Part shown: positions 1-57,430 of the stretch, in pieces
How positions within the stretch are numbered: the stretch's first letter is position 1
How the letters are laid out: every line of letters starts with the position of its first letter
Assembly: GCA_963735345.1 (NCBI GenBank)
Contig: CAVTKL010000009.1
Span: forward strand, 6,916 to 70,915
Reading direction: 5' to 3'
Length of the DNA: 64,000 nt
DNA from: an uncultured Thermoleophilia bacterium
GTDB taxonomy: Bacteria; Actinomycetota; Thermoleophilia; UBA2241
Notes under the pieces: generated by a model
Told to the model about the DNA's origin: nothing
Seen by the model: only the letters and a program-made list of their open reading frames with translations
Database searches by the model: none
Program-made: the position numbers and the translations under genes

Positions 1-234
1 TTCCAGTGGGTCAAGGGAGCCGACAGACGGCCAACGCTCGCGAAAGGAGCCCTCGTCGGCGAGCTGGCGGATGCGCTCCCGGGCGCCGACACGAAGATGA
101 TGACCACAGAACGGACACACCATGTGGGTGGCGCGCAGGTGGGCAAGGCTCGTGTCTCGCCGACAGGAGGGACACTCCCACTCCGGCTTGGCCGGCTCGC
201 TGGCGCGACGCTCGATCTCGACGATGACATTCAT
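1..234 (-). CDS. accD: acetyl-CoA carboxylase carboxyltransferase beta subunit, N-terminal 78 aa (gene continues beyond window start)
   Basis: Reverse-complement translation from ATG at 234-232 reads MNVIVEIERRASEPAKPEWECPSCRRDTSLAHLRATHMVCPFCGHHLRVGARERIRQLADEGSFRE, the AccD Cys4 zinc-ribbon N-terminus. No stop before position 1, so it is absent from the ORF track. It lies 22 nt downstream of the fabF stop. Confidence 0.7.
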   Translation of the reverse strand, partial: MNVIVEIERRASEPAKPEWECPSCRRDTSLAHLRATHMVCPFCGHHLRVGARERIRQLADEGSFRERWPSVGSLDPLE

Positions 235-256
235 TGAGGGTCCGGTCGGTCCGTGA

Positions 257-1501
257 TCACCCGTCGTAGCGACGGAACACGAGCGTCACGTTGTGGCCAC
301 CGAAGCCGAAGCTGTTGCTGAGAGCGACGTCGACCTGCCGGGCGCGAGCGCGCAGCGGCACGTAATCGAGATCGCATAGCGGGTCCTGATGTGTCAGGTT
401 GATGGTCGGCGGCACCACGTTGTTGACGATCGTCAGGACGGTGGCCACGGCCTCGATGGCGCCGGAGGCGCCCAGGCAGTGGCCGATCATCGACTTGTTG
501 GATGAGATCGCGACGCTCCGGGCGCTATCGCCGAGAGCCACCTTGAGGGCCTTGGTCTCGGCGAGGTCGCCCGCCTCGGTGGCCGTGCCGTGCGCATTGA
601 CGTAGTCCACATCCGCAGGACACAGGCCGGCCTCGTCCAGCGCCATGGTCACGGCCTGCGCCTGCGACTCGCCGGTCTCGTCCGGGAGCGTCATGTGGAA
701 GGCATCCGAACTCATACCGGCGCCGGCCAGCTCGGCGTAGATCCGGGCGCCGCGCGCAAGCGCGTGGTCGAGGCTCTCCAGCACAAGGCAACCAGCGCCC
801 TCGCCCATGACGAAGCCGTCGCGCCCCGCATCGAAAGGCCGAGACGCCTCGACGGGATCGCCGCTGTTGGTCGAGAGCGCGCGTGCCGCGGCGAAGCCTG
901 CCACGGCGATCGGGCAGATGGGTGCTTCGCTGCCCCCGGCGAACATCACGTCGGCGTCGCCGCTGCGGATGATGCGCGCCGCGTAGCCGATGGCATCGGA
1001 ACCGGCCGCGCAGGCGGTCGCGGTGGCGCTCAAGGGACCCTTGGTCCCCAGCGCAAGCGAAACATGCGCCGCGCCCATGTTGGGGATCATCATGGGCACC
1101 AGCAGCGGGTTGACGCGCTCGGGGCCCTTCTCGAGAAGCTTGAGCGTCTCGGCGTGGAGGGTCTGCAGGCCGCCGACCCCGCTGCCGATGACCGCCCCCA
1201 CGCGCGTCGCCTCGGGTCGCGGATCGAAGTCGGCGTCCGCGGAGGCGCCTCTGCCGGCGGCGACCGCGAACTGGCTGAACAAGTCGAGACGGCGCGCCTG
1301 GCGCTTCTCGACGTGGTCCTCAGCGTTGAAGTCCTGGACCTCGGCGGCGATGTGCACTCGATACTCCGAGTGGTCGAAGCGGGTGATCTCGCCGACCCCG
1401 GACTCGCCCGCGACAAGCCGTCGCCAGAACGTCGCGAGGTCGTTGCCGAGCGGCGAGATGACGCCCAATCCGGTGACGACGACTCTGGTGGATGCTGCCA
1501 T
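257..1501 (-). CDS. fabF: 3-oxoacyl-ACP synthase II
   Basis: 414 aa. N-terminus VVVTGLGVISPLGN and a C-terminal HGTAT...GH KAS fold. Operon context with fabG/fabD/fabH. Confidence 0.9.
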   Translation of the reverse strand: MAASTRVVVTGLGVISPLGNDLATFWRRLVAGESGVGEITRFDHSEYRVHIAAEVQDFNAEDHVEKRQARRLDLFSQFAVAAGRGASADADFDPRPEATRVGAVIGSGVGGLQTLHAETLKLLEKGPERVNPLLVPMMIPNMGAAHVSLALGTKGPLSATATACAAGSDAIGYAARIIRSGDADVMFAGGSEAPICPIAVAGFAAARALSTNSGDPVEASRPFDAGRDGFVMGEGAGCLVLESLDHALARGARIYAELAGAGMSSDAFHMTLPDETGESQAQAVTMALDEAGLCPADVDYVNAHGTATEAGDLAETKALKVALGDSARSVAISSNKSMIGHCLGASGAIEAVATVLTIVNNVVPPTINLTHQDPLCDLDYVPLRARARQVDVALSNSFGFGGHNVTLVFRRYDG

Positions 1502-1523
1502 GCGCGAATCCGCCCTTTCCGAC

Positions 1524-2279
1524 CTAGATACCCAAGCCGCCGTCGACGGGAAGGACGACGCCGGTGATGAATCGGGCCTGCGACGACGCCAAGAAGACGA
1601 CCGCAGCCGCCACGTCGTCGGGCGTCCCGATGCGCCTCAGCGGCGTCGCCGTCACGATCGTGCTCCTCGTCTCCTCGGGCAGCGCTTGCGTCATGGGTGT
1701 GTCGATGTAGCCGGGGGCGATGGCGTTGACCCTGACTCCTCGCGAACCCAGCTCCTTGGCCAAGGACTTGGTCAGCCCGATGATGCCGGCTTTGGCGGCG
1801 GCGTAGTTGGCTTGACCGGCGTTCCCGCGGCGACCGACCACACTTGACAGATTGATGATACAGCCCGACCGGCGACGGAACATCCTGCGCGCCGCCGCCT
1901 TGCTGACTAGGAACGTGCCACGCAAGTGCGTGGCGATCACCGCGTCGAAGTCGCCGGCGTCCATCATCATGACGACGTTGTCTCGCGTGATGCCGGCGTT
2001 GTTGACGACCACGCCGAGCGGGCCCAGTTCTTCCTCGGCGCGCGCGATCATCGCGTTGACCTGCTCCTCGTTGGAGACGTCGCCCATCACGCAGACCGCC
2101 CTGCGACCCAGACGCTCGACCTCGCCGACGACAAGCGAGCAGGCCGCCTCGTCGGAGAAGTCGTTGATGGCGATATCGGCGCCGGCCGCGGCCAGTTCGA
2201 GTGCGATGGCGCGCCCGATGCCACGCCCTGCACCCGTGACCAGGGCGACAGTCCCGCTGAGATCCAGATCCATGCTCAC
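1524..2279 (-). CDS. fabG: 3-oxoacyl-ACP reductase (SDR)
   Basis: 251 aa. TGAGRGIGRAIA Rossmann motif and NAG...Y..AK SDR catalytic motifs. Overlaps the fabD stop by 4 nt. Confidence 0.9.
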   Translation of the reverse strand: MSMDLDLSGTVALVTGAGRGIGRAIALELAAAGADIAINDFSDEAACSLVVGEVERLGRRAVCVMGDVSNEEQVNAMIARAEEELGPLGVVVNNAGITRDNVVMMMDAGDFDAVIATHLRGTFLVSKAAARRMFRRRSGCIINLSSVVGRRGNAGQANYAAAKAGIIGLTKSLAKELGSRGVRVNAIAPGYIDTPMTQALPEETRSTIVTATPLRRIGTPDDVAAAVVFLASSQARFITGVVLPVDGGLGI

Positions 2280-3208
2280 AGAGCCTCCAGGTAGCGTCCG
2301 TCGTTTCGCAACGCCGCGAGGGTCTCCGCGTCGGAGACACGGGCGACGCTTGCCTCCGGCACGATGCGCCGCACGAGGCCGCCGAGCACGCCGCCCGGCC
2401 CGACCTCAAGAAAGGCATCATACCCTGCCGCGTGCAAAGCCTTCACGGCTTGGGTGAAACGCACCGGCGCGACGAGCTGCCGCTGCAGCAGTTCCGGGAA
2501 CGCCTCCATCTCGAACTGCAGACTGCTTACCGAGTAGAACCGCGGCTCAGGAAGGCGCCAATCGGAGCACTCCAGTTGGCGCCGCAGAGGCTCCAGCGCA
2601 GGCTCCATGAGCGGCGAATGAAAGGCCCCGCTCACGGCGAGCGGGATGACCCGGCGAGCGCCGGCGGCCTTGGCCTTGGCGCCCAGCTCGCTCAAGGCTG
2701 CCTGCGTGCCGCTCACGACGATCTGACCGGGGCTGTTGAAGTTGGCGGGCCAGACGCCCTCCGTCTCGGCACAGAGCCTCTCTGCCGTGGCATCGTCCAG
2801 CCCAATGAGCGCCATCATGCCGCCGGCGCTGGCTGCGGCGGCGGCTTGCATGGCCTCACCCCGCCGGCGCACGAGGCGAACGGCGTCGGCGAACGGCACG
2901 GCCGTCGTTGCCACCAGAGCCGAGTACTCGCCGAGACTGTGGCCGAAGGCCACCGTGAAGCGCAGGCCCTCGGCCCGCAGGATCCGGAAGATGCCCACCG
3001 ACGCAGCAAGCAACGCCGGCTGCGTGACATCGGTGCGCGCCAGGAGGTCCGAGGGACCGGCTGCGCAGAGTCGCTCGAGGTCGTAGCCGAGCACCGCCGA
3101 GGCTTCCTCGTATGTAGCGCGCATGACGGGCTCGTCCGCGCAGAGATCGCAGCCCATGCCCACCACCTGTGATCCCTGACCGGGAAACATCAGCGCGAGG
3201 TCCTTCAT
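2276..3208 (-). CDS. fabD: malonyl-CoA:ACP transacylase
   Basis: 310 aa. FPGQGSQ and GHSLGE active-site motifs. Confidence 0.9.
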   Translation of the reverse strand: MKDLALMFPGQGSQVVGMGCDLCADEPVMRATYEEASAVLGYDLERLCAAGPSDLLARTDVTQPALLAASVGIFRILRAEGLRFTVAFGHSLGEYSALVATTAVPFADAVRLVRRRGEAMQAAAAASAGGMMALIGLDDATAERLCAETEGVWPANFNSPGQIVVSGTQAALSELGAKAKAAGARRVIPLAVSGAFHSPLMEPALEPLRRQLECSDWRLPEPRFYSVSSLQFEMEAFPELLQRQLVAPVRFTQAVKALHAAGYDAFLEVGPGGVLGGLVRRIVPEASVARVSDAETLAALRNDGRYLEAL

Positions 3209-3217
3209 GAAGACGAC

Positions 3218-4219
3218 CTAGAGCTCCCACTCAGTGAGGCACGTGCCCCAGGTGAGACCGGCGCCGAAGCCCGCCATGAGAAGCCGGTCGCCCTTCTTGA
3301 GCCGACCGCAGGCACTGGCCTCACTGAGACAGATGGGGATCGACGCGCATGAGGTGTTGCCGTAGCGATCGAGATTGGCGAAGACCTGATCCTCCCTGAA
3401 CCCCAGACGACGCACCGCCGAGTCGATGATGCGGATGTTGGCCTGGTGGGGGACGAAGAGATCCACATCAGCCACGCCAAGCTCCGCGTCGCCGAGCACC
3501 CGTTCGCAGGACTCCGCCACGGCACGGGTCGCGAAGCGGAACACTTCGCTGCCGGTCATCTGCATGGTATGCGCGTGCTGTCGCACGGTCTCGTGGCTGG
3601 CCGGCATACGGGAGCCGCCGGCCGGGATACTGAGGAACGCGGCGCCACTGCCGTCGTTGCCGAGGTCGAAGTGGAACATACGGCCTTCGTCGGCGGCCTC
3701 GACCAGCACGGCCCCGGCGCCGTCGCCGAAGAGCACGCTGGTACTACGGTCCTCCCAATCCACCATCCGGCTGAGGACCTCGGCGCCGATCACGAGCACC
3801 CGCTCGTAGATGTTCGCGGAGACGAACGCCGCGGCGCTGGCGAGGCCGTACACGAACCCGGTGCATCCCGCCTGGACGTCGAACGCCCCGGCGCGCAGCG
3901 CGCCGATCTTGTCGGCCACGATCGACGCCGTGGCGGGCATGATGTGATCGGGCGATATCGTCGTCACGATCACTAGGTCCAGCGCCTGAGGATCCATGCC
4001 AACCGATTCGAGGCAGCGGCGAGCGGCGATCACGCCCAGATCGCTCGCCGCTTGATCGGGGCTCGCGATCCTGCGCTCGCGGATGCCCGTCCGCGACATG
4101 ATCCACTCGTCCGACGTCTCGAGGAACCCCGAGATCTCGTCGTTGGTGAGGATCTTCTCGGGGACGTACACGCCCAGCGCCGAGATCCTGGCGCCGCGGG
4201 CAAGACCGCGACGCCTCAC
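3218..4219 (-). CDS. fabH: 3-oxoacyl-ACP synthase III
   Basis: 333 aa. ISALGVYVPE start; Cys-His-Asn KAS III architecture (ACTGF, HQAN, GAGL motifs). Confidence 0.9.
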   Translation of the reverse strand: MRRRGLARGARISALGVYVPEKILTNDEISGFLETSDEWIMSRTGIRERRIASPDQAASDLGVIAARRCLESVGMDPQALDLVIVTTISPDHIMPATASIVADKIGALRAGAFDVQAGCTGFVYGLASAAAFVSANIYERVLVIGAEVLSRMVDWEDRSTSVLFGDGAGAVLVEAADEGRMFHFDLGNDGSGAAFLSIPAGGSRMPASHETVRQHAHTMQMTGSEVFRFATRAVAESCERVLGDAELGVADVDLFVPHQANIRIIDSAVRRLGFREDQVFANLDRYGNTSCASIPICLSEASACGRLKKGDRLLMAGFGAGLTWGTCLTEWEL

Positions 4220-4680
4220 AGCTTGGCCTCACCGGCAGCGATGGAATCGGCATCCACGATGGCGGACATCAGCTCACCGCGACAGACCAGCTGACCCTCG
4301 ACCTTGGCCACGACCCTGGCGCGACCGACCGGCCCGCGCGCGGCGATGATCTCCGCTTCGAGGTGCAGCGTGTCGCCTGGCTTCACGACACGCTTGAAGC
4401 GCACCTTGTCGATCCCGGCGAAGAGCCCGATCTTGCCCTCCGTCGATCCTGCGCTCGCCGCGGCCAAGGTGGCGGTCTGGGCGAGCGCCTCGACGATGAG
4501 CACGCCTGGCATCACGGGATTGCCGGGGAAGTGCCCGGCGAACCAGAAGTCGTCGTCGCGGAGCAGACGCGTGGCCACGCAGCGCGCCCCCGGCTCGAGC
4601 TCTATGACCTGGTCGACGAGCAGGAAGGGTGGGCGATGCGGGAGCAGCGCCATGATCTGATCGCGGTCGAGCTTCACCAA
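4216..4680 (-). CDS. fabZ: 3-hydroxyacyl-ACP dehydratase
   Basis: 154 aa. LPHRPPFLLVD and HFPGNPVMPGVLIVEALAQ hot-dog motifs. Confidence 0.9.
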   Translation of the reverse strand: MVKLDRDQIMALLPHRPPFLLVDQVIELEPGARCVATRLLRDDDFWFAGHFPGNPVMPGVLIVEALAQTATLAAASAGSTEGKIGLFAGIDKVRFKRVVKPGDTLHLEAEIIAARGPVGRARVVAKVEGQLVCRGELMSAIVDADSIAAGEAKL

Positions 4681-4694
4681 TGGGTCTCCCTCGC

Positions 4695-5123
4695 TCAGGA
4701 TGGTCTCAGCTCACGGGAGTGCCGCACGTGCCGGCGCTCGATCCCGATGAGCACGGCTGCGGCCGCGAGGCCCCAGCCGATCAGGTTTCTGACGAGCATC
4801 GAACGGCCGCCCGGCAAGGCCACGCGGCCCAGGAGGCCGTCGATCTCCCGGAGTCGCCCGTCGACTGCCCTCAGAATGGGCCGCGCAGCAGCATCCGGCT
4901 CACGCTCGACCGCCGCGATGACGCGCTGTGCGAACCCAGGCGGAGGGGCGAGCTCAATGCTACCCCATGCGGCGAGGGCGATGCGCATCGCGCTCGTCTC
5001 GGCCAACTCCGCGGCGCAGTCCTCGCAGGAACCGAGGTGACGCTCGAGCTCCGCACTTTCGAGATAGCCCAGCTCACCGTCCAGGTAACGGTCGGTGAGC
5101 GCCTGGACATAGCTGCATTCCAT
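4695..5123 (-). CDS. membrane-anchored zinc-binding anti-sigma factor (ZAS-like)
   Basis: 142 aa. N-terminal C..(25)..HxxxCxxC (HLGSCEDC) zinc motif and a C-terminal TM helix LIGWGLAAAAVLIGI. Its ATG overlaps the sigma stop (ATGA). Confidence 0.65.
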   Translation of the reverse strand: MECSYVQALTDRYLDGELGYLESAELERHLGSCEDCAAELAETSAMRIALAAWGSIELAPPPGFAQRVIAAVEREPDAAARPILRAVDGRLREIDGLLGRVALPGGRSMLVRNLIGWGLAAAAVLIGIERRHVRHSRELRPS

Positions 5124-5719
5124 CAGCCTCCGTCCGTCTGGTCGTCCGACTGCGGCCCCAGGCCACGGGCGCGCAACCGCAGGCGCAGACAGGCGCGCCC
5201 CCGATGCACCATCACCTTGACGGTGCCCAGCGGTCGTCCGGTGAAGGCGGCGATCTCCTGGTACGGCAGGCCGTAGACATCGCGCAGGACGGTGGGCGCC
5301 CGGTAGTCGTCCGGCAGCTCACCCAGCGCGCCGACCAGGACGGCGGCGCCCAGCCCCTCGGGGGACTCAGCCCCGATCTCGTCGACGAGCTCGTGCAGGG
5401 GGGCCGCCTCGGGGCGGCGCCGCTCGCGGCGCCGCAGATCGAGGGCGGAAGAGACCGCCACCCGGAAGAACCAGGTGGTGAACGAAGCGTCGCCGCGATA
5501 CTGACCCAGCTTGCGGTAGCACCTCAGCAGCGCCTCTTGCGCCGCGTCTTCCGCGTCCAGGCGATCGCCCAGGATGTTGTACGCGATCGAATACGCCATG
5601 CCTTGATACCGCTCCACTATCCGCGTGAACGCCGCCACGTCGCCGCTCGCAGCGCGCGCGAGCTCCTCAGGCGATGGGTCGGGCTGCGAGCCCCACTTGT
5701 CAAAGTTAGACGCAATCAA
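5123..5719 (-). CDS. ECF (group IV) sigma-70 factor
   Basis: Region 2/4 homology (AFTRIVERYQGMAYSIAYNILGDRLDAEDAAQEALLRCYRKL ... PYQEIAAFTGRPLGTVKVMVHRGRACLR). The track ORF extends to 5863 but overlaps the divergent ABC gene start. A TTG at 5719 is the preferred start, but the start is uncertain. Confidence 0.75.
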   Translation of the reverse strand: MIASNFDKWGSQPDPSPEELARAASGDVAAFTRIVERYQGMAYSIAYNILGDRLDAEDAAQEALLRCYRKLGQYRGDASFTTWFFRVAVSSALDLRRRERRRPEAAPLHELVDEIGAESPEGLGAAVLVGALGELPDDYRAPTVLRDVYGLPYQEIAAFTGRPLGTVKVMVHRGRACLRLRLRARGLGPQSDDQTDGG

Positions 5720-5824
5720 TGCAGAGGAAGTTACAGGGAGCGAGGAGACTCTCGGACCAGCAGGCTGGGCCACGGCCAGTCTACACTGCTCGCGCCCACC
5801 GGAGAGAGGGTAAGCTCTGACCGG

Positions 5825-7591
5825 ATGAAGACCGTCTGGCGTATCCTGGGTCTCCTGCGTCACTACAAGTTGCTCACCTTCGTGGGCTTCGCGCTGGCCT
5901 TCGCCCAGATGGGGCTCGGGCTCCTCGTCCCCAGGATCATCCAGCTGACCATCGACGACGCCCTGATCGGTGGCCAGTCAAGCCTCCTCGTGACCTACGG
6001 TCTGGCGCTGCTCGCTATCGCCGGCGTGCGCCTCATCGTCGCCATCGGCCGCCGACTCGCCAGCGGCAAGGTCAGCCTCGACATCGAGTACGACCTGCGC
6101 AATCGGCTGTGGTCGCACCTGCTGCGTCAGTCGTTCGGGTACTTCGACCGCTGGCCGACAGGCCAGCTCATGAGCCGCGCCATGAGCGACGTGCAGAACG
6201 TGCGCATGTTCCTGGGCTACGGCCTTGTCTTCTTCGCGACCAACCTGGTGATGATGTTCGCAGTCGCGGTGATCCTGTTCGCGCTCGACTGGCAGCTTGC
6301 GCTGCTCTCGTACGCTTTCATCCCGTTCCTCCTGCTCGCTACCGTGCGTTTCAGCCGGCGCCTGCAGCCCATCCTCAAGGATGTGCAGCAGCGGATCGCC
6401 GATGTGACGGCGGCGGCCGAGGAGAACGTGGTCGGCTCACGTATCGTGCGCATCTTCGCGCGCGAGGAGGACGAGCTGGAGAAGTTCAGCGACCGCAGCT
6501 ACAAGGTGTTCCAGGCCAGCGTCGCCGCGGCGCATACGCGGGCCATCTACATCCCGCTCATCGCCTTCATCCCCAACCTGGCGGTGGCCGTCCTCCTGTA
6601 CTTCGGCGGACGCCAGGTGATCGCCGGCGATCTGAGCCTGGGTTCGCTGGTCGCCTTCTACAGCTACCTGATGATGCTCGTCTACCCCGCCCAGGTGATC
6701 GGCTGGCTGACGAGCCTTGCGCAGCGCGCCATCGCCAGCGGCGAGCGGGTGTATGAACTGCTTGACGCGCCGCTGGAGCGCGTCGAGAAGGCCGACGCCC
6801 GGCCGCTGCGCCTGGCGCGACCGGCCGGCTCCGTCACCCTCGAAGACGTGTCCTTCAGTTTCGCCGACCGGCCTGTGCTCCAGGCGACAAGCCTGGCGGT
6901 CCCGGCTGGCCGGACCATCGCCCTGGTCGGCCACACGGGCTCCGGCAAGTCCACCCTGACGAACCTGATCCCGCGCTTCTACGATCCCGATGCCGGCCGC
7001 GTCCTCATCGACGGACAAGACGTGCGCGATGTCCCGCTCGCCGATCTGCGCAGCCACATCGGCGTGGTCACGCAGGATCCCTTCCTGTTCAGCATCTCGA
7101 TCGCGGAGAACATCCGCTTCGGACGCCCTGAAGCCAGCGACACGGAGGTGCGAGCGGCCGCTTCCCTGGCGCAGGCGGATGACTTCATCGCCGCGCTCCC
7201 CGAAGGCTACGCGACCGTCGTCGGCGAACGCGGCTTCACGCTCAGCGGTGGCCAGCGACAGCGTGTCGCGATTGCGCGCGCGCTCATCATGGACCCCTGC
7301 ATCCTCATCCTCGACGATGCGACCTCGAGCGTGGATGTCGAGACTGAGGCAAGGATACGCGCCGCGCTGAGAGAGATCACGCGCGGCCGCACGACGTTCA
7401 TCATCGCTCATCGCCCATCGACCATCTCTCTCGCCGATGAGATCGTCGTGCTCGACGACGGACGCATCGTGGAGCGCGGCACGCACGCCGAGCTGATGGC
7501 CGGCCAGAAGCAGTACGCCCGCATGTTCGGCCAAGCCGAGCGCGAAGGTCGCGATCTCGACGAGATCGACGTCCACGTCGGGGACGAGTGA
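5825..7591 (+). CDS. ABC exporter, fused permease/ATPase, subunit 1 of a heterodimer
   Basis: Start ATG 5825 (MKTVWRILGLL) preceded by GGAGAGAGGG. 6-TM domain plus Walker A GHTGSGKST, signature LSGGQRQR and Walker B ILILDDATS. The upstream 208 codons of the track ORF overlap the sigma gene and are rejected. Confidence 0.9.
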   Translation: MKTVWRILGLLRHYKLLTFVGFALAFAQMGLGLLVPRIIQLTIDDALIGGQSSLLVTYGLALLAIAGVRLIVAIGRRLASGKVSLDIEYDLRNRLWSHLLRQSFGYFDRWPTGQLMSRAMSDVQNVRMFLGYGLVFFATNLVMMFAVAVILFALDWQLALLSYAFIPFLLLATVRFSRRLQPILKDVQQRIADVTAAAEENVVGSRIVRIFAREEDELEKFSDRSYKVFQASVAAAHTRAIYIPLIAFIPNLAVAVLLYFGGRQVIAGDLSLGSLVAFYSYLMMLVYPAQVIGWLTSLAQRAIASGERVYELLDAPLERVEKADARPLRLARPAGSVTLEDVSFSFADRPVLQATSLAVPAGRTIALVGHTGSGKSTLTNLIPRFYDPDAGRVLIDGQDVRDVPLADLRSHIGVVTQDPFLFSISIAENIRFGRPEASDTEVRAAASLAQADDFIAALPEGYATVVGERGFTLSGGQRQRVAIARALIMDPCILILDDATSSVDVETEARIRAALREITRGRTTFIIAHRPSTISLADEIVVLDDGRIVERGTHAELMAGQKQYARMFGQAEREGRDLDEIDVHVGDE

Positions 7592-9420
7592 TGGCCACCT
7601 CCTCCCGTCATGCCCAAGGACCGCACGGCACAGGCGCCTCCCTGGAGGAACTGCGGGGATGGCGCGCCTTCGTGCATCTGGCGCGCGAGCTCAAGCTCGC
7701 CCGGCTCGCGCGCTATGCCCGCCCGTACCGGCGGCGCGCCATCCTCAGCCTGCTCGCCATGGTCGCGGTCACGCTCAGCGGGCTCGCCGTCCCGTACCTC
7801 CTCAAGGTCGCCATCGACGCCGGGATCGGCGCCGGCAGCATCACGGTGCTCACCTGGGTGATCGTGGCCTTCATCGGAGTGAGCCTCGTCAATCTCGGCG
7901 CCAGCTACCTTCAGACATACTTGACGAGTTGGGTTGGCTCACACGTCATCGATGATCTCCGCCGCGAGCTCTTCGCCCACCTGCAGAAGCTCTCGCTCGA
8001 CTTCTTCAGCCGCCAGCGGACCGGCTGGATCGTGAGCCGCCTCACCAACGACATCGACGCCCTCGACCAGCTCGTCACCGAGGGCGTCACAACGCTGGTC
8101 ACGAATTCCCTGACCTTTGTCGGGGCCATCGTCTTCCTCTTCATCCTCGATTGGCGCCTTGCCCTCGCCACTCTGACCATCATGCCGCCGCTCCTGGCCG
8201 CGACCCTCATCTTCCGCTCCCGCTCGGCGCGGACGTACGCGCAGGTGCGCAATCGGATCGGCGACGTCAGTGCGCACCTTCAGGAGTCCATCTCGGGCAT
8301 CCGCGTGCTCCAGGCCTTCCGCCGGGAGGAGAGCGACTACGCGCGCCTCGACGCCGCCGACGCCGCCTACCGCACGGCCAACATGCGCACCGTCGTCCAG
8401 AGCGGCGTGTACTTCCCGTTCGTCGAGTTCCTGTCGGCCGTGGCCGTCGTCATCGTCCTCTGGTACGGCGGCTCACTCATCAGTGGCGACGCCCTCGAGA
8501 TCGGCGTGCTGGTGGCGTTCATCGGGTACCTGAACAGCTTCTTCGACCCCCTGCAGCAGCTCAGCCAGCTCTACAACACCTTCCAGGCGTCGATGGCCGC
8601 GGTCCAGAAGATCTACGCCGTGCTCGACACGGAGCCGGACATGACCGACGCCCCAGACGCCGTCGCTCTGCCCGACGTCCGCGGCGATGTGGAGCTCCGC
8701 GGCGTGACCTTCGGCTACCACGCCGATCAGCCTGTGCTGCACGCCCTCGACATCGCCATCGCCGCGGGGAAGACGGTGGCCCTGGTCGGGGCGACGGGCG
8801 CGGGCAAGTCAACGGTGATCAAGCTGCTGGCGCGCTTCTACGACCCCGACCAAGGGACCGTTCTCATCGACGGTCACGATCTGCGCAAGGTCACGATGCG
8901 CTCGCTGCGCGAGCAGCTCGCCGTCGTCCCCCAGGAGGCCTTCCTGTTCAGCGGGTCGATCCTCGACAACATCCGCTTCAGCCGGCCGTCCGCCGACCCC
9001 GCCGAGGTCAAACGCATCGCTCGCATCGTCGGCGTCCATGAATTCGTCGAGGCCCTGCCACAGGGGTACGACACCGAGGTGCATGAAGGCGGCGCCGGGC
9101 TGAGCACCGGGCAGCGGCAGCTCATCAGCTTCGCCCGAGCCCTGCTCGCCGACCCCCGCGTCCTCATCCTCGATGAGGCGACGTCCAGCGTCGACGCCGA
9201 GAGCGAGCGCCGTATCGAGCGCGCCATGGAGGTGCTCTTCAGCGGGCGTACCTCGGTGATCGTCGCGCACCGCCTGAGCACGGTGCGCTACGCGGATGAG
9301 ATCCTCGTCATCGACGGGGGGCGCGTCATCGAGCGCGGCGCCCACGACCAGCTCGTCGCCCTCGGCGGCTCCTACGCTCGCTACTATGCCGAGTGGGAGG
9401 CCACGGGCGAGGCTCTCTAG
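7588..9420 (+). CDS. ABC exporter, fused permease/ATPase, subunit 2 of a heterodimer
   Basis: 610 aa. Walker A GATGAGKST, signature LSTGQRQL, Walker B LILDEATS. 4-nt overlap with the preceding gene. Confidence 0.9.
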   Translation: MMATSSRHAQGPHGTGASLEELRGWRAFVHLARELKLARLARYARPYRRRAILSLLAMVAVTLSGLAVPYLLKVAIDAGIGAGSITVLTWVIVAFIGVSLVNLGASYLQTYLTSWVGSHVIDDLRRELFAHLQKLSLDFFSRQRTGWIVSRLTNDIDALDQLVTEGVTTLVTNSLTFVGAIVFLFILDWRLALATLTIMPPLLAATLIFRSRSARTYAQVRNRIGDVSAHLQESISGIRVLQAFRREESDYARLDAADAAYRTANMRTVVQSGVYFPFVEFLSAVAVVIVLWYGGSLISGDALEIGVLVAFIGYLNSFFDPLQQLSQLYNTFQASMAAVQKIYAVLDTEPDMTDAPDAVALPDVRGDVELRGVTFGYHADQPVLHALDIAIAAGKTVALVGATGAGKSTVIKLLARFYDPDQGTVLIDGHDLRKVTMRSLREQLAVVPQEAFLFSGSILDNIRFSRPSADPAEVKRIARIVGVHEFVEALPQGYDTEVHEGGAGLSTGQRQLISFARALLADPRVLILDEATSSVDAESERRIERAMEVLFSGRTSVIVAHRLSTVRYADEILVIDGGRVIERGAHDQLVALGGSYARYYAEWEATGEAL

Positions 9421-9425
9421 CCGCG

Positions 9426-11711
9426 CTACTCGATGCGTGGCAGGCGCCGGTCGAGCCACTCGGGCAACCACCAGTTCCAGCGCCCGATCAGGCGCATCGC
9501 GGCGGGCACCATCAGGATGCGGATCACGGTCGCGTCGAGCAGGACGGCCACGGCCAGACCCACGCCGATGGCCTTGGTGATGAGGATCGAAGTGAAGGCG
9601 AACGAACTCGCGACCACGACCACGATGAGTGCCGCACTCGTGATGATCCGGCCGGTCTTGGCGAGACCACGACGCACGGCCTCGCGGTTGTCGCCTGTCT
9701 CATCCCAGGACTCTCGCATGCGGGTCAGCAGGAACACCTCGTAGTCCATGGATACGCCGAACACCGTACAGAAGAGCAGGATGGGCAGTTCGGCATCGAT
9801 CGCACCCGTGCTCGAGAAGCCGAACAGCCACTCCAGGTGCCCTTCCTGGAAGACCCATACCATGGCGCCGTAGCCCGCGAGAAGCGAGAGCATGTTCATG
9901 GTGACGGCCTTGATCGGCAGCACGACGCTGCGCAGGAGGACGAGGAGGACGAGCGCCGTCACGCAGACGACGAACAGGATGATCCACGGGAAGCGGTCGG
10001 CGAGCACGCTCAGGAAGTCGTGCACGGCCATGGAGACGCCCGCGACCCGGAGTTCGGCGCCCGGCGGTCCGCCCGCCTCGAGGATCCGCGTCGCCAGGAT
10101 CTGAGACTCTCGCGCCGTCGGCGGAGTCGCCGACACCACACGGAAGAGCGTCGCGCCGGGCGCGGTCGTGACCTCGCGAAGCCGGACCGCCCGCTTGCGC
10201 GCCTCTGCCTCCATCAACCCCTGGATGATGCTCGGCAGGCCCGCTGAAGGGCTCTCGGCGCCGATCTGAGGGCCGCGATCGACCGCCTTCCAGAAGGCCG
10301 CGACGTCCGCCGCGGATTCCATCCCGGAGACATTGACGACGCTGACCACGCGATCCACTCCTGGCAGCGCCTCGAGCCTCTGCCCGTAGGCGAAGAGGCG
10401 CTCGAGATTCTCGGGGTCGAGTGGATCGGACCCGCCCTTCCACGTCACCAGCGTCTCGATGGGCGAGAGCGCCGAGGCGTCGAAGCGGCTCTGGAGGATC
10501 TCGTAGCCCTGCCGGGCCTCCGAGTCCCGTGGAAGGGAGGTGGCGCTCGGGACCTCGGTCGTCAGGCGCGTCGCCGGCCACGCGACCAGCACCATGAGCG
10601 CCACCGTCAGGAGGAGGACGGGAACGGGCCGGCGCATGACCCAGTCTGACCAGCGCCGCCAGAACATGCCTTCTCTGCCCGATCGGCCGACGATCCGCAG
10701 CGCATCGACACGAGGACCGAGCATCCCAAGAAGAGCGGGCAGAAGCGTCAGCGCGGCAAGCACCGAGATGAGCACGACGAGCCCTCCGCCTATTCCCATG
10801 GAACGCATCGACATGAAGGGGATGCTGATGAGCCCCAGCAGCCCGATGACCACGGTGAGCCCCGAGAAGAAGATGGACCTGCCGGCGAACTGGACCGTCC
10901 GTGCAACCGCGTCGTCGACGGGGCGGCCCGCCGCCAATTCCTCTCGAAACCTGCCGACCATGAACAACGCGTAGTCGATCCCGATGGCGAGACCAAGCAA
11001 CGTGGCGACGTTCATGGCGAACACAGAAAGGTCCATGGCCTGGGCCAGCAGCCAGAAGATGCCCAGGGTGACGCTGACCGCCATTGCACCGCAGACCACC
11101 GGGAGGGCGGCGGCAACCAGCGTCCCGAAAATGAGGAGCAGGACGAAGACGGCCACCGGCAGCGTGTAGCCCTCCGCGGTCCGCAGGTCATCCGCCGACT
11201 TCTCCTCCAGTTCCGCGTAGACTGCCGAATCGCCGGTGAGGTATGTCGTGAGGTCGGTGGGCCGCAGGGCCCGGCGGACGCCCTCCACCTGGCCCTGCAC
11301 CTGCTCCGTGCTCGCGTTGAACTCGAGCACGGCGAACGTCGACCGGCCGTCTCGCGAGATGAAGTCCGGATCGCCGGTCGAGGCCGCCGTCTGCACGGCG
11401 ATGAGCCCCGGGAAGCGCTGCGCGTCGATGTTGGCGAGGGCTTCGTCGATCTGAGCGCGAAAACCCGGGGAGCGGGCATCGAGGTGATCGCTGGCGAAGA
11501 CCACCGTCAGGCGGGCCGGACCGAAGCCAAGACGCTTCTGCATCTCTCGCTGACCTTCTTGCGACGGCGAGTCCGGCCGCGTGAAGCCGCCACCCTTCAG
11601 CTGCGAGGGCAGACTGAGCGTGCCCAATAGACCCGCGAGGAACGCCAAGCTCCAGAGGATCACCACCAGGTGGCGCCGGCGATATGAGAACCGCCCCAGG
11701 GCCGCGAACAT
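9426..11711 (-). CDS. MMPL/RND-superfamily membrane transporter
   Basis: Start at the internal Met (MFAALGRFSYRRRHLVV), which avoids overlap with the NUDIX gene. Two 6-TM bundles with large periplasmic loops, typical of the MMPL family. Confidence 0.85.
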   Translation of the reverse strand: MFAALGRFSYRRRHLVVILWSLAFLAGLLGTLSLPSQLKGGGFTRPDSPSQEGQREMQKRLGFGPARLTVVFASDHLDARSPGFRAQIDEALANIDAQRFPGLIAVQTAASTGDPDFISRDGRSTFAVLEFNASTEQVQGQVEGVRRALRPTDLTTYLTGDSAVYAELEEKSADDLRTAEGYTLPVAVFVLLLIFGTLVAAALPVVCGAMAVSVTLGIFWLLAQAMDLSVFAMNVATLLGLAIGIDYALFMVGRFREELAAGRPVDDAVARTVQFAGRSIFFSGLTVVIGLLGLISIPFMSMRSMGIGGGLVVLISVLAALTLLPALLGMLGPRVDALRIVGRSGREGMFWRRWSDWVMRRPVPVLLLTVALMVLVAWPATRLTTEVPSATSLPRDSEARQGYEILQSRFDASALSPIETLVTWKGGSDPLDPENLERLFAYGQRLEALPGVDRVVSVVNVSGMESAADVAAFWKAVDRGPQIGAESPSAGLPSIIQGLMEAEARKRAVRLREVTTAPGATLFRVVSATPPTARESQILATRILEAGGPPGAELRVAGVSMAVHDFLSVLADRFPWIILFVVCVTALVLLVLLRSVVLPIKAVTMNMLSLLAGYGAMVWVFQEGHLEWLFGFSSTGAIDAELPILLFCTVFGVSMDYEVFLLTRMRESWDETGDNREAVRRGLAKTGRIITSAALIVVVVASSFAFTSILITKAIGVGLAVAVLLDATVIRILMVPAAMRLIGRWNWWLPEWLDRRLPRIE

Positions 11712-11839
11712 CTGGGGGCACCTCCTGTGCCGAGGCGGGTCGGGAGCGCCGCGGCAGATCTCCCCACGAAGACGACGGCGCTGTTGGGAACGATATACTA
11801 AGCGGCAGAAAGGGGGGCCTTCGCAGCGGCCCCTATGCC

Positions 11840-12283
11840 GTGACGCATCCAGAGAGAAGGACATCCGCAGGCGGCGTCGTCGTGCGCACAGACGGCGCTC
11901 TGGAGGTCTGCCTTATCAGGCCCAGCGGTCGCGGTCGCAGAGTGTGGGGCCTGCCCAAGGGGGGCATCGAGGAGGGCGAGACCCCAGCGCAAGCCGCCGT
12001 CCGTGAAGTCGCGGAAGAGACGGGCATCACCGCCACCGTCGGCCGGGAGCTGGGTTCCATAGACTACGCCTTCTACTCCCGGGAGAGCGGCGGCCGCATC
12101 CACAAGACGGTGCACTACTTCCTGATGCAGGCCGTCGGCGGCGACACGTCCCGACACGACGACGAGGTCAGAGAAGCCCGCTGGGTGCGCCTGCACGACG
12201 CCCTTCAGATGATGACGTATCCGAACGAGCGGGAGATGGTGCGCCGGGCCGCGGCAGCGGTAGACGATGTCGAAGACGGCTGA
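11840..12283 (+). CDS. NUDIX hydrolase
   Basis: Nudix box GLPKGGIEEGETPAQAAVREVAEETGI. GTG start at 11840 chosen to clear the divergent MMPL start; the start is uncertain. Confidence 0.7.
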   Translation: MTHPERRTSAGGVVVRTDGALEVCLIRPSGRGRRVWGLPKGGIEEGETPAQAAVREVAEETGITATVGRELGSIDYAFYSRESGGRIHKTVHYFLMQAVGGDTSRHDDEVREARWVRLHDALQMMTYPNEREMVRRAAAAVDDVEDG

Positions 12284-20539: not shown

Positions 20540-21487
20540 TCAGGATCGGATCGAACGGAGCAGCTCGATCAGCCGCCCCATCTCCGACTTGTCCTTGAAC
20601 ACGATCTGGATGGTGCCGCCACGGCGCCCCGCGCGGATGCGCACCGGCGCATCGAAGACGCCGTAGAGCTCGTCGATGAGAACGCCCAGGTCGGGATTCG
20701 GGTCAGGCCGGGCCGCGGTCTTGGCCGACGGCTCCACCTCGTCCATTCCTCTGACCAGTTCCTCGGTCTGGCGTACGCTGAGCCCCTGCGCCACGACCAG
20801 ACGCGCCGCCTTGCGCCGCCGCCCGTGGTCGGACAGCGCAAGAAGAGCGCGGCCATGGCCCTCGCTCAGCTCCCCGGACTCGAGCATGCCCTGTACGTCG
20901 TCGGGGAGATCGAGCAGGCGCAGGATGTTGCTGACCGCCGCGCGACTGCGGCCGACCAGCTCGGCGACTCTCTCGTGCGTAAGACCAAACTCGTCGACGA
21001 GGGCAGCGTAGGCGTGCGCCTCCTCGATACTGTTGAGGTCCTCACGAGCGACGTTCTCGGCGACGGCGATCTCGAGCGATGCGGCCTCGTCGGCCGGTCG
21101 CACGAGGGCCGGGATGCGCTCCAGACCGGCGAGCCTGGCGGCGCGCAGTCGCCGTTCCCCTGCGATCAGCTCGTAGCGAGGGCCGGGCGGCGACGGACTG
21201 GCGACGGACTCGGCTGGACCGGTCGCTGCCTCGGGGGTCTCCGGCGGCGACGCCGTCAGCGGCCTCACGACCACCGGCTGAACGACGCCCAAGGCTTTGA
21301 TGGACGCGGCGAGCTCGGCGAGGTCTTCGTCCGCGAACGTGCGCCGCGGCTGACGCCGATTCACCGCGATCTCCGCGAGCGCGAGCTCGCGCAAGCGACC
21401 TTCGACTGCGCCGCTGCGACCCAGGGAGGCCCTGCCGTCGCCGATCAGAGCGCCCAGACCCTTGCCCAAAGCTTTCCTGCTAGACAC
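20540..21487 (-). CDS. parB: chromosome partitioning protein ParB
   Basis: GTG start after AAGGAGG (VSSRKALGKGLGALI). ParB box LAEIAVNRRQPRR and an HTH domain. Confidence 0.9.
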   Translation of the reverse strand: MSSRKALGKGLGALIGDGRASLGRSGAVEGRLRELALAEIAVNRRQPRRTFADEDLAELAASIKALGVVQPVVVRPLTASPPETPEAATGPAESVASPSPPGPRYELIAGERRLRAARLAGLERIPALVRPADEAASLEIAVAENVAREDLNSIEEAHAYAALVDEFGLTHERVAELVGRSRAAVSNILRLLDLPDDVQGMLESGELSEGHGRALLALSDHGRRRKAARLVVAQGLSVRQTEELVRGMDEVEPSAKTAARPDPNPDLGVLIDELYGVFDAPVRIRAGRRGGTIQIVFKDKSEMGRLIELLRSIRS

Positions 21488-22241
21488 GGGAGACGACCTC
21501 CTTGGCGAGATCGAAGTAGGCGTCGCTGCCGGCACACGTCGCATCATAACGCGAGATGGGCAGCCCGTGACTCGGCGCCTCGCTGAGCCGCACGTTGCGA
21601 GGGACCACTGTGCTGAAGACGTGCTCCCCGAGGTGCTCGCGCACTTCTCGTGCCACTTCGCGGCCCAGACGAGTGCGACCATCGTACATGGTCACCAGGA
21701 CGCCCAGGATCACCAGCTCCGGATTGAGATGCTCCTGGACGAGGGCCACGGTGTCGAGCAGCTGCGCCAGGCCCTCAAGGGCGTAATACTCCGACTGCAC
21801 CGGGATGAGGACCTCTCCGGCGGCGACCAGCGCGTTGATCGTGAGCACGCCGAGTGACGGCGGGCAATCCACAAAGACGAAATCGTACTGAGACACCTGG
21901 CCGGTGAGCGCGTTATCGAGCACGTATTCGTTGCCCTCGGCGTTGGCGAGCTCCACGACGGACCCCGCGAGATCGGGACAGGACGGAACCAGCCAGAGGT
22001 GCGCGACCGGCGTCGAGACCGTCGCCTCAGCGACGCCGACGGCCCCTCCCAGGACCCCATACGTGCTCAGGCGCGCGTCGCGGGCACGCGCCATGAGGCC
22101 GGCAGAGGCATTCGCCTGGGGATCAAGGTCGATGAGGAGTACGTCGAAGTCGGCCTCCGCCAAGCAGGCCGCGAGGTTGACGGCCGTCGTGGTCTTACCG
22201 ACGCCACCCTTCTGATTGGTCACGGCGATGACGCGAGTCAC
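21480..22241 (-). CDS. parA: chromosome partitioning ATPase ParA/Soj
   Basis: Deviant Walker A VTNQKGGVGKTTTAVNLAA. Confidence 0.9.
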   Translation of the reverse strand: MTRVIAVTNQKGGVGKTTTAVNLAACLAEADFDVLLIDLDPQANASAGLMARARDARLSTYGVLGGAVGVAEATVSTPVAHLWLVPSCPDLAGSVVELANAEGNEYVLDNALTGQVSQYDFVFVDCPPSLGVLTINALVAAGEVLIPVQSEYYALEGLAQLLDTVALVQEHLNPELVILGVLVTMYDGRTRLGREVAREVREHLGEHVFSTVVPRNVRLSEAPSHGLPISRYDATCAGSDAYFDLAKEVVSRV

Positions 22242-27982: not shown

Positions 27983-28037
27983 CCGTCCTCGGCGGCGTCC
28001 CGGCCGCAGGCGCCGAGAGTCGAATGGAAGGGATGGA

Positions 28038-29204
28038 ATGCCGACGCTGAGAGGATTCGCCGTGGGCGCTGTAGGCGGGGTATTGGGCGCAGCCTTCGTC
28101 CTGACCGTCCTGGTTCTGGTCTTCGACCTCGGTCAGAACACGAAGACCGTCGTGACCATCGCGCCATCCCCAGTGGCATACGCCTCCGGCGCCCAGGGCC
28201 TGTCGCCCGACCAGATCTACAAGAGCTTGTCGGGCGGCGTCGTCATGGTCCTTTCGAGCTTCGGCGATGAGGGAGTCGGCCCCTTCGGCGATGCACAGAC
28301 CGGACAAGCTCTGGGCACGGGGTTCGTGGTCGACGAGGACGGCTACATCCTCACGAACGCCCACGTCGTCAACGATCAGGGCCAGTCGGCGAGCTCGGTC
28401 ACGGTCGTGTTCCGCGAGAACGACGCCGAGACCACACGCGTCAAGGGAGAGCTCGTGGGTGTCGACGTGAGCAGTGACGTGGCCGTCATCAAGGTCGACC
28501 CAAAGGGCCTCGCCCTACGACCGCTGCCCCTGGGCGACTCCGGCAAGGTGATCGTCGGGGAGCCTGTCGTCGCCATCGGCAACCCCCTCGGGTACGACTT
28601 CTCGATCACCTCCGGGATCGTCTCGGCCACGGGCCGTAGCCTGCACGCCCCGAACGGCATGACGATCGCCAACGGGATCCAGACCGACGCGGCGATCAAC
28701 CTGGGCAACTCGGGGGGTCCGCTCATCGATGGCCGAGGGCGGGTGATCGGCATCAATGAACAGATCGCGTCGCAGTCAGGCGGAAGTCAGGGTCTCGGCT
28801 TCGCCGTCCCCATCAACACCGCCGTGCGCTCTCTGAACCAGCTCCGCGAGAACGGCAAGGTCGAGTACGCGTGGCTCGGCGTCACGGGGCAGACGCTGTC
28901 GAGCGACGTCGCCGCCATGTTCGGGATCGACACTTCAGGAGGCGTCCTTGTCGAGGAGGTTTCGCCGGGGAGTCCGGCGGCGGCGGCGGGCATCAGGGGC
29001 GGCGGCCACATCGTCTCGATCCAGGACCAGACCTTCACGCTCGGCGGCGACATCATCGTCAAGATCGATGCGACCCCGATCGCGAGCTTCGACGACCTCG
29101 TCGCCTACCTCTCCGGCAAACGGCCAGGCGACGAGGTCACGTTGATCCTCGATCGCGACGGCGAGCATCTCGAACTCACGGCCACACTCGCCGAGCGCCC
29201 GTGA
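28038..29204 (+). CDS. htrA: HtrA/DegP-family trypsin-like serine protease with PDZ domain
   Basis: Catalytic triad motifs TNAHVV ... D ... GNSGGPL, and a C-terminal PDZ domain. Confidence 0.9.
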   Translation: MPTLRGFAVGAVGGVLGAAFVLTVLVLVFDLGQNTKTVVTIAPSPVAYASGAQGLSPDQIYKSLSGGVVMVLSSFGDEGVGPFGDAQTGQALGTGFVVDEDGYILTNAHVVNDQGQSASSVTVVFRENDAETTRVKGELVGVDVSSDVAVIKVDPKGLALRPLPLGDSGKVIVGEPVVAIGNPLGYDFSITSGIVSATGRSLHAPNGMTIANGIQTDAAINLGNSGGPLIDGRGRVIGINEQIASQSGGSQGLGFAVPINTAVRSLNQLRENGKVEYAWLGVTGQTLSSDVAAMFGIDTSGGVLVEEVSPGSPAAAAGIRGGGHIVSIQDQTFTLGGDIIVKIDATPIASFDDLVAYLSGKRPGDEVTLILDRDGEHLELTATLAERP

Positions 29205-42006: not shown

Positions 42007-46912
<4,906 letters not shown>

Positions 46913-57341: not shown

Positions 57342-57430
57342 CCTGCCATGGTACTCAAGCCGGTCGACGACCGCCAACTTGCCGCGGCGCGAGGGTGTGC
57401 GCGCGGGCGGCGTGCTGTACTGTGGCGGCC

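Follow-up and report, generated by a model that had tools for sequence, protein, structure and literature searches.

Why should a sigma factor of the extracytoplasmic function (ECF) type and its zinc-binding anti-sigma (ZAS) partner stand at the head of a set of fatty-acid synthesis genes, and does the pair control them? The locus that raises this question lies in a 64,000-nucleotide stretch of contig CAVTKL010000009.1, from an uncultured Thermoleophilia bacterium; this whole stretch, with a G+C content of 68%, is referred to here as the window. Near its left end the two genes are followed by fabZ, fabH, fabD, fabG, fabF and accD, all on the minus strand. To our knowledge, transcriptional control of fatty-acid synthesis is understood almost entirely from FadR, FabR, FapR, FabT and FasR, regulators that sense acyl-CoA, acyl-acyl carrier protein (acyl-ACP) or malonyl-CoA. 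ECF input to the pathway is known from two cases, sigmaW acting through one internal promoter and SigX acting largely indirectly. In the present locus the whole elongation set and the committed-step carboxyltransferase are tied in cis to the sigma/anti-sigma switch, in about 50 species of an uncultured but widespread actinobacterial class. The reading favoured here, with somewhat better than even confidence, is a co-transcribed operon whose expression would be boosted from an ECF-type promoter. The genes concerned are as follows.

5719-5123, minus strand: ECF (group 4) sigma gene, 198 aa from the TTG at 5719, stop codon at 5125-5123
5123-4695, minus strand: zf-HC2 class I zinc-type anti-sigma gene, 142 aa, whose C-terminus is a hydrophobic helix and a basic tail
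4680 (or the likely start GTG 4677) to 4216, minus strand: fabZ, 3-hydroxyacyl-ACP dehydratase (NF000582, 159 bits against a cutoff of 113)
4219-3218, minus strand: fabH, beta-ketoacyl-ACP synthase III (NF006829, 414 bits against a cutoff of 249)
3208-2276, minus strand: fabD, malonyl-CoA:ACP transacylase (TIGR00128, 291.5 bits against a cutoff of 260.9)
2279-1524, minus strand: fabG, 3-oxoacyl-ACP reductase (TIGR01830, 314.7 bits against a cutoff of 297.75)
1501-257, minus strand: fabF, beta-ketoacyl-ACP synthase II (TIGR03150, 592.6 bits against a cutoff of 493.75)
234-1, minus strand: 5' part of accD (acetyl-CoA carboxylase carboxyltransferase beta), the first 78 codons, leaving the window at its left end

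Every gene identity is backed by both Pfam and NCBIfam. FabZ, FabH, FabD, FabG and FabF all score above NCBIfam equivalog or subfamily cutoffs, and the translated N-terminus of accD carries a CxxC..CxxC zinc ribbon. An initial annotation of the window, made from the letters alone, had placed an ECF sigma/zinc anti-sigma pair at the head of a contiguous fabZ-fabH-fabD-fabG-fabF-accD series lacking acpP, and this layout is borne out. Its details at the junctions needed some correction. The sigma stop and the anti-sigma start share the sequence TGATG, a 1-nt overlap at 5123 instead of the 4-nt ATGA coupling first described. The gap of 14 nt reported between the anti-sigma gene and fabZ is correct for TTG 4680, but GTG 4677, the start that aligns with relatives and has a Shine-Dalgarno (SD) sequence GGGAG upstream, makes it 17 nt. 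Farther down, fabZ and fabH overlap by 4 nt (GTGA), fabH and fabD are separated by 9 nt, fabD and fabG overlap by 4 nt, and gaps of 22 nt lie between fabG and fabF and between fabF and accD. Because the fabG-fabF gap is only 22 nt, acpP cannot fit there, as had been pointed out, and tblastn searches with four query ACPs (from E. coli, B. subtilis, S. coelicolor and M. tuberculosis) detected no acpP, either in the 64 kb window or across 69 related loci. The contiguous fabH-fabD-fabG-acpP-fabF core is thus not present here: acpP is absent from the cluster, the window and the related loci, while the other fab genes are recognised by their models. A simple consensus scan of window positions 1-6200 found no sigma70-type promoter, hence none between the genes. 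The only two terminator-like hairpins in the same interval lie within fabD, at chance level, and none falls between genes; no Rfam family matches in positions 1-12000. The scan therefore gives no sign of a promoter and terminator separating fabZ from the anti-sigma gene.

Is the association of these genes anything more than an accident of one genome? A scan for relatives, taking one genome per species, returned 50 loci, all from uncultured Thermoleophilia/Actinomycetota metagenome-assembled genomes (MAGs) of soils, lake sediment, permafrost and anaerobic reactors. The sigma, anti-sigma, fabZ, fabH, fabD, fabG and fabF genes are colinear on a single strand in all 50 of these species-level loci, across which identity falls as low as 62% for the sigma factor and 46% for the anti-sigma factor, and accD and accA lie downstream of fabF in every one of the 42 loci with enough sequence. 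Close homologues of the anti-sigma factor, about 143 aa in length, number more than 140. The divergent pair of ATP-binding cassette (ABC) exporter genes and the MMPL gene that flank the operon in the window are adjacent in only about nine loci and absent within 8 kb in 32. As gene order is kept while the surroundings change, the nine-gene block is conserved as a unit. In other phyla there are thirteen more distant sigma/ZAS pairs, with a sigma identity of 29-38%, and near these no fab genes occur. The linkage between the sigma pair and the fab genes is real, conserved and lineage-wide, beyond what chance would give.

The junctions are conserved along with the order. The TGATG arrangement of sigma stop and anti-sigma start occurs in 47 of 51 sequences, with an SD sequence GGGAG or GGAGG 5-9 nt upstream, and in the window the anti-sigma gene has its own GGAGG ahead of the ATG. 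In 43 of the 50 relatives the stop codon of the anti-sigma gene and the start of fabZ share 4 nt (GTGA or ATGA); the remaining junctions show gaps of 10-37 nt or evident assembly frameshifts, the gap being 13-17 nt, with its own GGGAG, in the window and its nearest relatives. Such 4-nt overlaps leave no room for a terminator between the anti-sigma gene and fabZ, and stop/start overlaps are typical of translationally coupled cistrons. Together with the single strand, the narrow range of the junctions (from a 4-nt overlap to a 22-nt gap), the invariant order and the lack of terminator-like or sigma70-like sites between genes, this comparative evidence strongly supports co-transcription of the sigma, anti-sigma and fab/acc genes, which the initial annotation had offered as the minimum to expect. 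Several long-read MAGs (L038, L049, L056, and L003 against L004) carry probable frameshifts in the sigma gene, the anti-sigma gene or fabZ; in L038 the anti-sigma open reading frame (ORF) runs into fabZ, and in L003 the sigma gene is not called. These frameshifts are likely assembly errors rather than marks of pseudogenes.

What could drive the operon? Alignment of the DNA upstream of the sigma genes revealed a bipartite motif, P2, shared by the window and every one of the 49 relatives for which upstream sequence is available.

5735-5705, minus strand: predicted ECF promoter P2, TGTAAC-N17-CGTCTAAC, with the -35 TGTAAC at 5735-5730 and the -10 CGTCTAAC at 5712-5705
5697-5703, minus strand: predicted P2 transcription start, at about 5700 within sigma codon 7, placed by the usual -10 to +1 distance

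Across the 50 sequences the spacer is always 17 nt and the position always identical. GTAAC and CGTC are invariant, T at -1 is present in 96%, the TAAC after CGTC is kept at 94-100%, and the intergenic DNA around the motif is poorly conserved. The -10 part runs into the first codons of the sigma gene, where the CG of CGTC is supplied by codon 3, an NCG triplet with a random first base (information content 0.07) that reads as T, A, P or S, and the following codon is TCT in 47 of 50, in genomes with about 86% G+C at third positions. Because the amino acid varies at a fixed CG, and TCT is kept despite the high third-position G+C, P2 is conserved as DNA and not as protein. It fits the classical ECF pattern, the -35 resembling GGAAC/GTAAC/TGAAAC and the -10 resembling CGTC/TCTAA; -10 elements of the CGTC/TCTAA kind are found at E. 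coli rpoE P2 and at the B. subtilis sigmaX, sigmaM and sigmaW promoters. A conserved pair of AAC and CGT boxes, 16-17 nt apart, where the sigma gene begins is the pattern expected of autoregulation. About half of ECF sigma factors autoregulate (PMC7776599). The motif occurs once in the 64 kb window, and in 694 kb of related flanks from the 50 loci there are four scattered extra matches, three within fabF and one at the fabF/accD boundary. An ECF motif had been anticipated upstream of position 5719 and of fabZ: it is indeed conserved at the sigma gene, but it straddles 5719 rather than lying upstream, and neither the window nor any of the 50 loci has a second ECF motif ahead of fabZ.

A conserved motif at the head of the operon need not mean that the fab genes depend on it. 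An autoregulated sigma pair could have become fused to a fab operon expressed mainly from a hidden constitutive promoter inside the sigma or anti-sigma coding sequence, with the real regulon elsewhere and ECF read-through into fabZ a minor contribution. The cell depends on constant expression of the essential fab and acc genes, and actinobacterial sigmaA promoters often consist of just a weak TAnnnT -10, which a consensus scan would miss; the counts of P2 cover the 64 kb window and 694 kb of flanks, and in the window and its nearest relatives the anti-sigma/fabZ gap has opened to 13-17 nt with an SD sequence of its own. Against such an arrangement stand the synteny of all 50 loci in changing surroundings and the 4-nt overlap in 43 of 50, which argues for selection on coupled expression, as well as the lack of any second conserved motif ahead of fabZ and the rarity of P2 outside the head of this operon. 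A passenger linkage of this kind seems unlikely next to the favoured reading of an operon boosted from P2.

That reading carries an unusual consequence for the sigma factor itself. The sigma start codon (5719-5717) sits inside the P2 spacer, 7 nt before CGTC. The usual distance from an ECF -10 to +1 is 6-9 nt, and a purine stands at motif position +34 in all 50 sequences (A in 45, G in 5); transcription from P2 should begin about 19 nt inside the sigma ORF. Since the predicted P2 start is inside the ORF, full-length sigma must be made from an mRNA that begins farther upstream. No start codon is conserved other than the one in the spacer, so the locus lacks the ordinary arrangement in which the promoter precedes the sigma start and its transcript encodes the sigma factor. 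P2 transcripts would carry the anti-sigma gene and fabZ with their own ribosome-binding sites, and would have no sigma product or a shorter one made from a non-obvious start.

Could the sigma start be misplaced? It aligns with a conserved ATG, GTG or TTG in 34, 14 and 2 of the 50 sequences, respectively, the window's TTG 5719 being one of the two TTG starts, and it has no SD sequence. The sigma frame is clearly coding from about W9 on, where variation is synonymous. In 26 of the 50 loci there is no further in-frame start upstream before a stop, which in two loci is the adjacent codon. A longer sigma factor from an upstream start (the ORF in the window is open to 5863) was rejected on these grounds, and because the upstream sequence is not conserved. 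A uORF (an upstream ORF) ending at the invariant TAA, which would feed the SD-less start by termination-reinitiation, was also rejected; it has no consistent start codon and is not conserved. No conserved canonical start that could yield a short sigma turned up downstream: V28 is not conserved, its codon being GTG in roughly half of the loci, and at V35 GTG is used by 45 of the 47 sequences that have Val, but other Val columns are nearly as biased. Residues 1-27 (5719-5639, minus strand) form an extension conserved at the protein level, M-x-x-S-N-x-H-K-W-x-x-L-P-D-P-[ST]-P-x-[ED]-L-A-R-A-A, which precedes the usual 'GD..AF' start of ECF region 2 and would be lost from products of P2 transcripts. 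A comparable geometry is seen at a distant ECF sigma gene of an Acidobacteriota MAG (L057, 7300-7420; 38% identity, no fab genes), where the ATG that starts the ORF lies inside GCAAC-N18-CGTCTAAG and a downstream ATG gives the canonical ECF N-terminus MALVARCRAGD. Start codons called within ECF promoter spacers may be a wider issue of annotation or of biology.

A start codon without an SD sequence also invites an explanation of P2 that involves no ECF factor at all: the sigma mRNA could be leaderless, with TGTAAC(TT) as its sigmaA -10 box, and CGTCTAAC, in the first codons, could act as a signal for translation or at the RNA level. The divergent ABC gene, with TAAGCT, 8 nt and then ATG, has the same geometry as TAACTT, 8 nt and the sigma start. 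Set against this are the exact 17-nt spacing that the two boxes keep, typical of ECF promoters, their lack of complementarity to each other, the absence of an Rfam match and the lack of a conserved uORF ending at the TAA. A leaderless sigmaA box was moreover rejected as such, as the supposed TAnnnT hexamer ends in C in 18 of 50 loci and GTAAC is invariant. Taken together, the evidence makes this account very improbable. At the ABC gene itself (ATG 5825, plus strand; 5811-5827), the TAAGCT lies exactly 8 nt upstream of the start codon. Those relatives that still have the ABC pair keep the element ('agcttacc' on the sigma strand), and its likely role is that of a -10 box for an mRNA with a very short leader or none.

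If P2 is an ECF promoter, as the favoured reading holds, is it read by the sigma factor encoded beneath it? The protein has Sigma70_r2 (PF04542, residues 34-102) and r4_2 (PF08281, residues 130-178) joined by a linker of 27 aa, with no match to the sigma3 domain PF04539. Having sigma2 and sigma4 without sigma3, and a linker shorter than 50 aa, it is an ECF (group 4) factor. The generic ECF model TIGR02937 is the only one whose cutoff it clears (87 bits, with 42.9 required), and it corresponds to no curated characterised equivalog in NCBIfam (SigM 106.8 against 190, SigW 105.1 against 209, SigE 94.5 against 265), so none of these curated models places it in a characterised group with an unrelated regulon, an outcome that would have spoken against a role in lipid synthesis. 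SigW is among its top matches, and its best sequence match in the PDB is M. tuberculosis SigE (E 7.5e-24). No group linked to fatty acids is named in the main text of the paper that re-classified ECF factors, and the text of the ECF specificity-code paper yields no usable rule.

The match to SigE draws attention to a cascade in place of a loop, in which P2 would serve another, master stress ECF sigma factor. In M. tuberculosis, the promoter P3 lies inside the sigE ORF and depends on sigmaH, and non-canonical codons then give isoforms of 215 and 218 aa beside the main form of 257 aa (PMC10027907). That gene offers a likeness as an actinobacterial ECF gene with several promoters (P1, P2 and P3), one of them ECF-dependent within the annotated ORF. 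It differs in that P3 is read by sigmaH and not by SigE, in that the downstream operon is rseA-htrA-tatB with no fab genes, and in that the sigma factor here reaches only 94.5 bits on the NCBIfam SigE model, whose cutoff is 265. The intragenic P3 and the PDB match lend a cascade some credit, as does the fact that GTAAC/CGTC-type motifs are common to several ECF groups. Yet in every genome P2 is invariant and strictly accompanies this sigma gene, as is usual under autoregulation (PMC7776599), and no further ECF sigma gene is seen in the conserved block. Reading of P2 by a different factor is improbable on this balance, and reading by the operon's own sigma is preferred.

Where would the transcript for full-length sigma, and for the fab genes under basal conditions, come from? 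A second element lies farther upstream.

5787-5776, minus strand: P1, a candidate housekeeping -10 element or operator, AGTGTAGACTGG (family consensus GGTGTACACTKG), a TGTACACT-like site

Sites like TGTACACT are found 37-189 nt upstream of the P2 -35 in 34 of 49 relatives (loci L007-L054), and elsewhere on that strand there are only 5 copies in about 690 kb. The match in the window has 2 mismatches and is at chance level on its own. The core of the element is the palindrome GTGTACAC and its flanks are asymmetric (GG...T); these asymmetric flanks and the TAnnnT core suggest a housekeeping -10 box in preference to a symmetric operator.

The remaining component is the anti-sigma factor. It scores 33.2 bits on zf-HC2 (PF13490, cutoff 22.2), and the HxxxCxxC motif noted at the outset is present as H29-x3-C33-x2-C36. 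With a fourth, N-terminal ligand (C3) in a helical domain, it belongs to the class I ZAS proteins. In 22 anti-sigma homologues C3, H29, C33 and C36 are invariant, as are LPGGR (103-107) and several residues around it. The AlphaFold2 (AF2) model (mean predicted local distance difference test score 70, and 80-90 in the N-terminal domain) has helices at 3-14, 20-32, 34-54, 64-73, 83-98 and 111-138, which make up a four-helix class I domain, a further helix, a short hairpin at LPGGR and the C-terminal helix. B. subtilis RsiW is the best match by profile (E 0.0019) and by structure, the N-terminal 65 residues superposing on 5wuq with a template modelling score of 0.75 and a root-mean-square deviation of 2.3 A at 28-29% identity.

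The initial annotation had called the protein membrane-anchored. A short C-terminal hydrophobic helix is there, but its uninterrupted hydrophobic run is only 15 residues and its Kyte-Doolittle maximum over 19 residues is 1.8 (1.33-1.94 across the family), and an anchor is plausible but not certain. Beyond the helix follow just 13-16 residues with 4-7 Lys/Arg. The alignment, the AF2 model and hydropathy show no extracytoplasmic domain in the anti-sigma factor, and hence no RsiW-type site-1 substrate. The protein would then be at most tail-anchored, and since it has no extracytoplasmic sensor domain, the signal must, on this evidence, be sensed in the membrane or the cytoplasm.

Could that signal be a thiol stress? 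The spacing of the zinc ligands, C-x25-H-x3-C-x2-C, is identical to that of S. coelicolor RsrA (C11, H37, C41 and C44). The same ligand set occurs in the redox-sensing RsrA and in the non-redox RsiW, which is regulated by proteolysis and not by redox. The differences from RsrA are also plain: RsrA is a soluble redox sensor, the anti-sigma factor here scores 26.9 bits on TIGR03988 (cutoff 62.5) and has a C-terminal hydrophobic helix, and the sigmaR regulon is that of thiol homeostasis. Because RsiW shares the ligand set without redox control, and the RsrA model is so far from its cutoff, thiol sensing is possible but not indicated, and nothing in the locus marks the signal as envelope stress either.

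From the gene content, synteny, junctions and motif conservation seen in these loci we infer the activity of P2, its reading by the operon's own sigma, its start site, and the signal and route that would relieve the anti-sigma factor. In the mechanism proposed, the sigma, anti-sigma, fabZ, fabH, fabD, fabG, fabF and accD genes, plus accA beyond the window, would form one operon, and an RsiW-like zinc domain tethered by the short C-terminal hydrophobic helix would keep the ECF sigma factor inactive. Basal expression of the essential fab and acc genes would come from an upstream promoter, for which the conserved TGTACACT element P1 is the candidate. The P1 transcript would include the SD-less sigma start, so that sigma would be translated weakly and the anti-sigma factor, with its strong SD sequence, well, leaving sigma sequestered. 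Inactivation of the anti-sigma factor, perhaps by intramembrane proteolysis of a naturally 'pre-trimmed' substrate or by oxidation of the zinc site, would release sigma to fire P2 at the head of its own gene. P2 would raise transcription of the genes for the anti-sigma factor, FabZ, FabH, FabD, FabG, FabF, AccD and AccA; the induced transcripts would encode no sigma, or a shorter isoform from an alternative start, and the co-induced anti-sigma factor would reset the switch. Membrane-lipid synthesis in this lineage is probably wired directly to a signal-responsive switch.

Several points weigh against this proposal. With the start codon in the P2 spacer, simple positive autoregulation of the usual kind cannot work as the locus is drawn here, and no conserved canonical downstream sigma start was found. 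P1 is absent or diverged in 15 of 49 loci, and the membrane anchor is borderline, with its Kyte-Doolittle values of 1.33-1.94 and a strongly basic tail. P2 could be read by a different ECF sigma, and, the essential fab genes needing constitutive expression, an unseen internal promoter may dominate. A bolder version of the proposal takes the promoter's position at face value: the whole type II fatty-acid synthesis (FAS II) and acetyl-CoA carboxylase (ACC) carboxyltransferase operon would owe most of its transcription to the ECF sigma that it encodes, acting at a promoter that skips the sigma start and so giving negative feedback only, and a tail-anchored anti-sigma factor lacking an external sensor domain would report membrane state and so set fatty-acid capacity as a membrane-lipid homeostat. 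This version is rather doubtful; were it true, induced transcripts would encode the anti-sigma factor, the Fab and Acc enzymes and at most an N-terminally truncated sigma.

How does the locus compare with systems already described? The initial annotation regarded an ECF link to lipid synthesis as unusual; such control is not unprecedented, two earlier cases being known. The B. subtilis sigmaW promoter is of the type TGAAAC-N16-CGTA, similar to the TGTAAC-N17-CGTC of P2, and sigmaW and RsiW likewise combine an ECF sigma with a zinc (C-H-C-C) class I anti-sigma factor. SigmaW directly drives type II fatty-acid synthesis genes from a promoter inside fabHA-fabF and so stiffens the membrane (PMC8144471). 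The present sigma is not a SigW member (105 bits against the equivalog cutoff of 209). RsiW has an extracytoplasmic domain that is trimmed by PrsW, whereas only 13-16 basic-tail residues follow the helix here. SigmaW works through a promoter within fabHA, whose operon is distinct from that of sigW, and changes the type of acyl chain, whereas the sigma and anti-sigma genes of this locus are the first cistrons of the whole fabZHDGF-accDA operon. The second precedent is SigX of P. aeruginosa, overexpression of which induces most FAS II genes and ACC subunits and alters membrane fluidity (PMC3875570). It resembles the present case in that ECF sigma activity raises fatty-acid synthesis genes; it differs in that its targets are dispersed without a clear consensus promoter, sigX is unlinked to fab genes and has no ZAS partner, and the phylum is another. 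For the possibility of a shorter sigma product, Streptomyces sigmaR offers a parallel, as two promoters give two isoforms, sigmaR and sigmaR' (PMC4921905). The locus thus appears functionally akin to the sigmaW and SigX cases and a member of neither family, the NCBIfam equivalog tests having failed; what would set it apart is the sigma pair as leading cistrons, an anti-sigma factor without an external domain, and an ECF promoter straddling the sigma start.

If the proposal is true, the operon would provide a defined one-operon model for signal-responsive supply of membrane lipids, and the anti-sigma factor would be a minimal one whose sole non-cytoplasmic feature is a membrane helix. P2 would be a second deeply conserved ECF promoter within a sigma ORF, and would bear on sigma isoforms and on the sign of feedback.

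The surroundings of the operon add a few observations. An envelope-related neighbourhood (5825-11864) comprises a pair of fused ABC exporter genes on the plus strand (5825-7591 and 7588-9420) and, on the minus strand, the gene of an MMPL-family transporter (9426-11864); this ABC/MMPL part is kept only in the closest relatives. Farther on, 12.3-19.5 kb encodes a metallo-beta-lactamase-fold protein, an MscS-like channel, a PIG-V-like mannosyltransferase, a DUF2079 protein and a GT1 glycosyltransferase. A HAMP histidine kinase followed by an HtrA-like trypsin/PDZ protease is encoded at 26192-29204. The replication-origin neighbourhood also falls within the window, with dnaA (50396-51838), dnaN (48972-50084), recF (47528-48778), gyrB (44480-46876) and gyrA (42007-44487) on the minus strand between 42007 and 51838, and parB at 20540-21682. 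The cumulative GC skew is lowest near 40-42 kb. About 45 kb separates the fab operon from dnaA, and the operon is probably on the predicted leading strand. The gene for a D-lysine 5,6-aminomutase alpha subunit, with a thiolase nearby (30319-33870), hints at lysine fermentation. An MttB-family methyltransferase is encoded at 57293-58762, and in the relative L005 it is an MttB gene and an arginase gene that stand directly upstream of the sigma operon instead.

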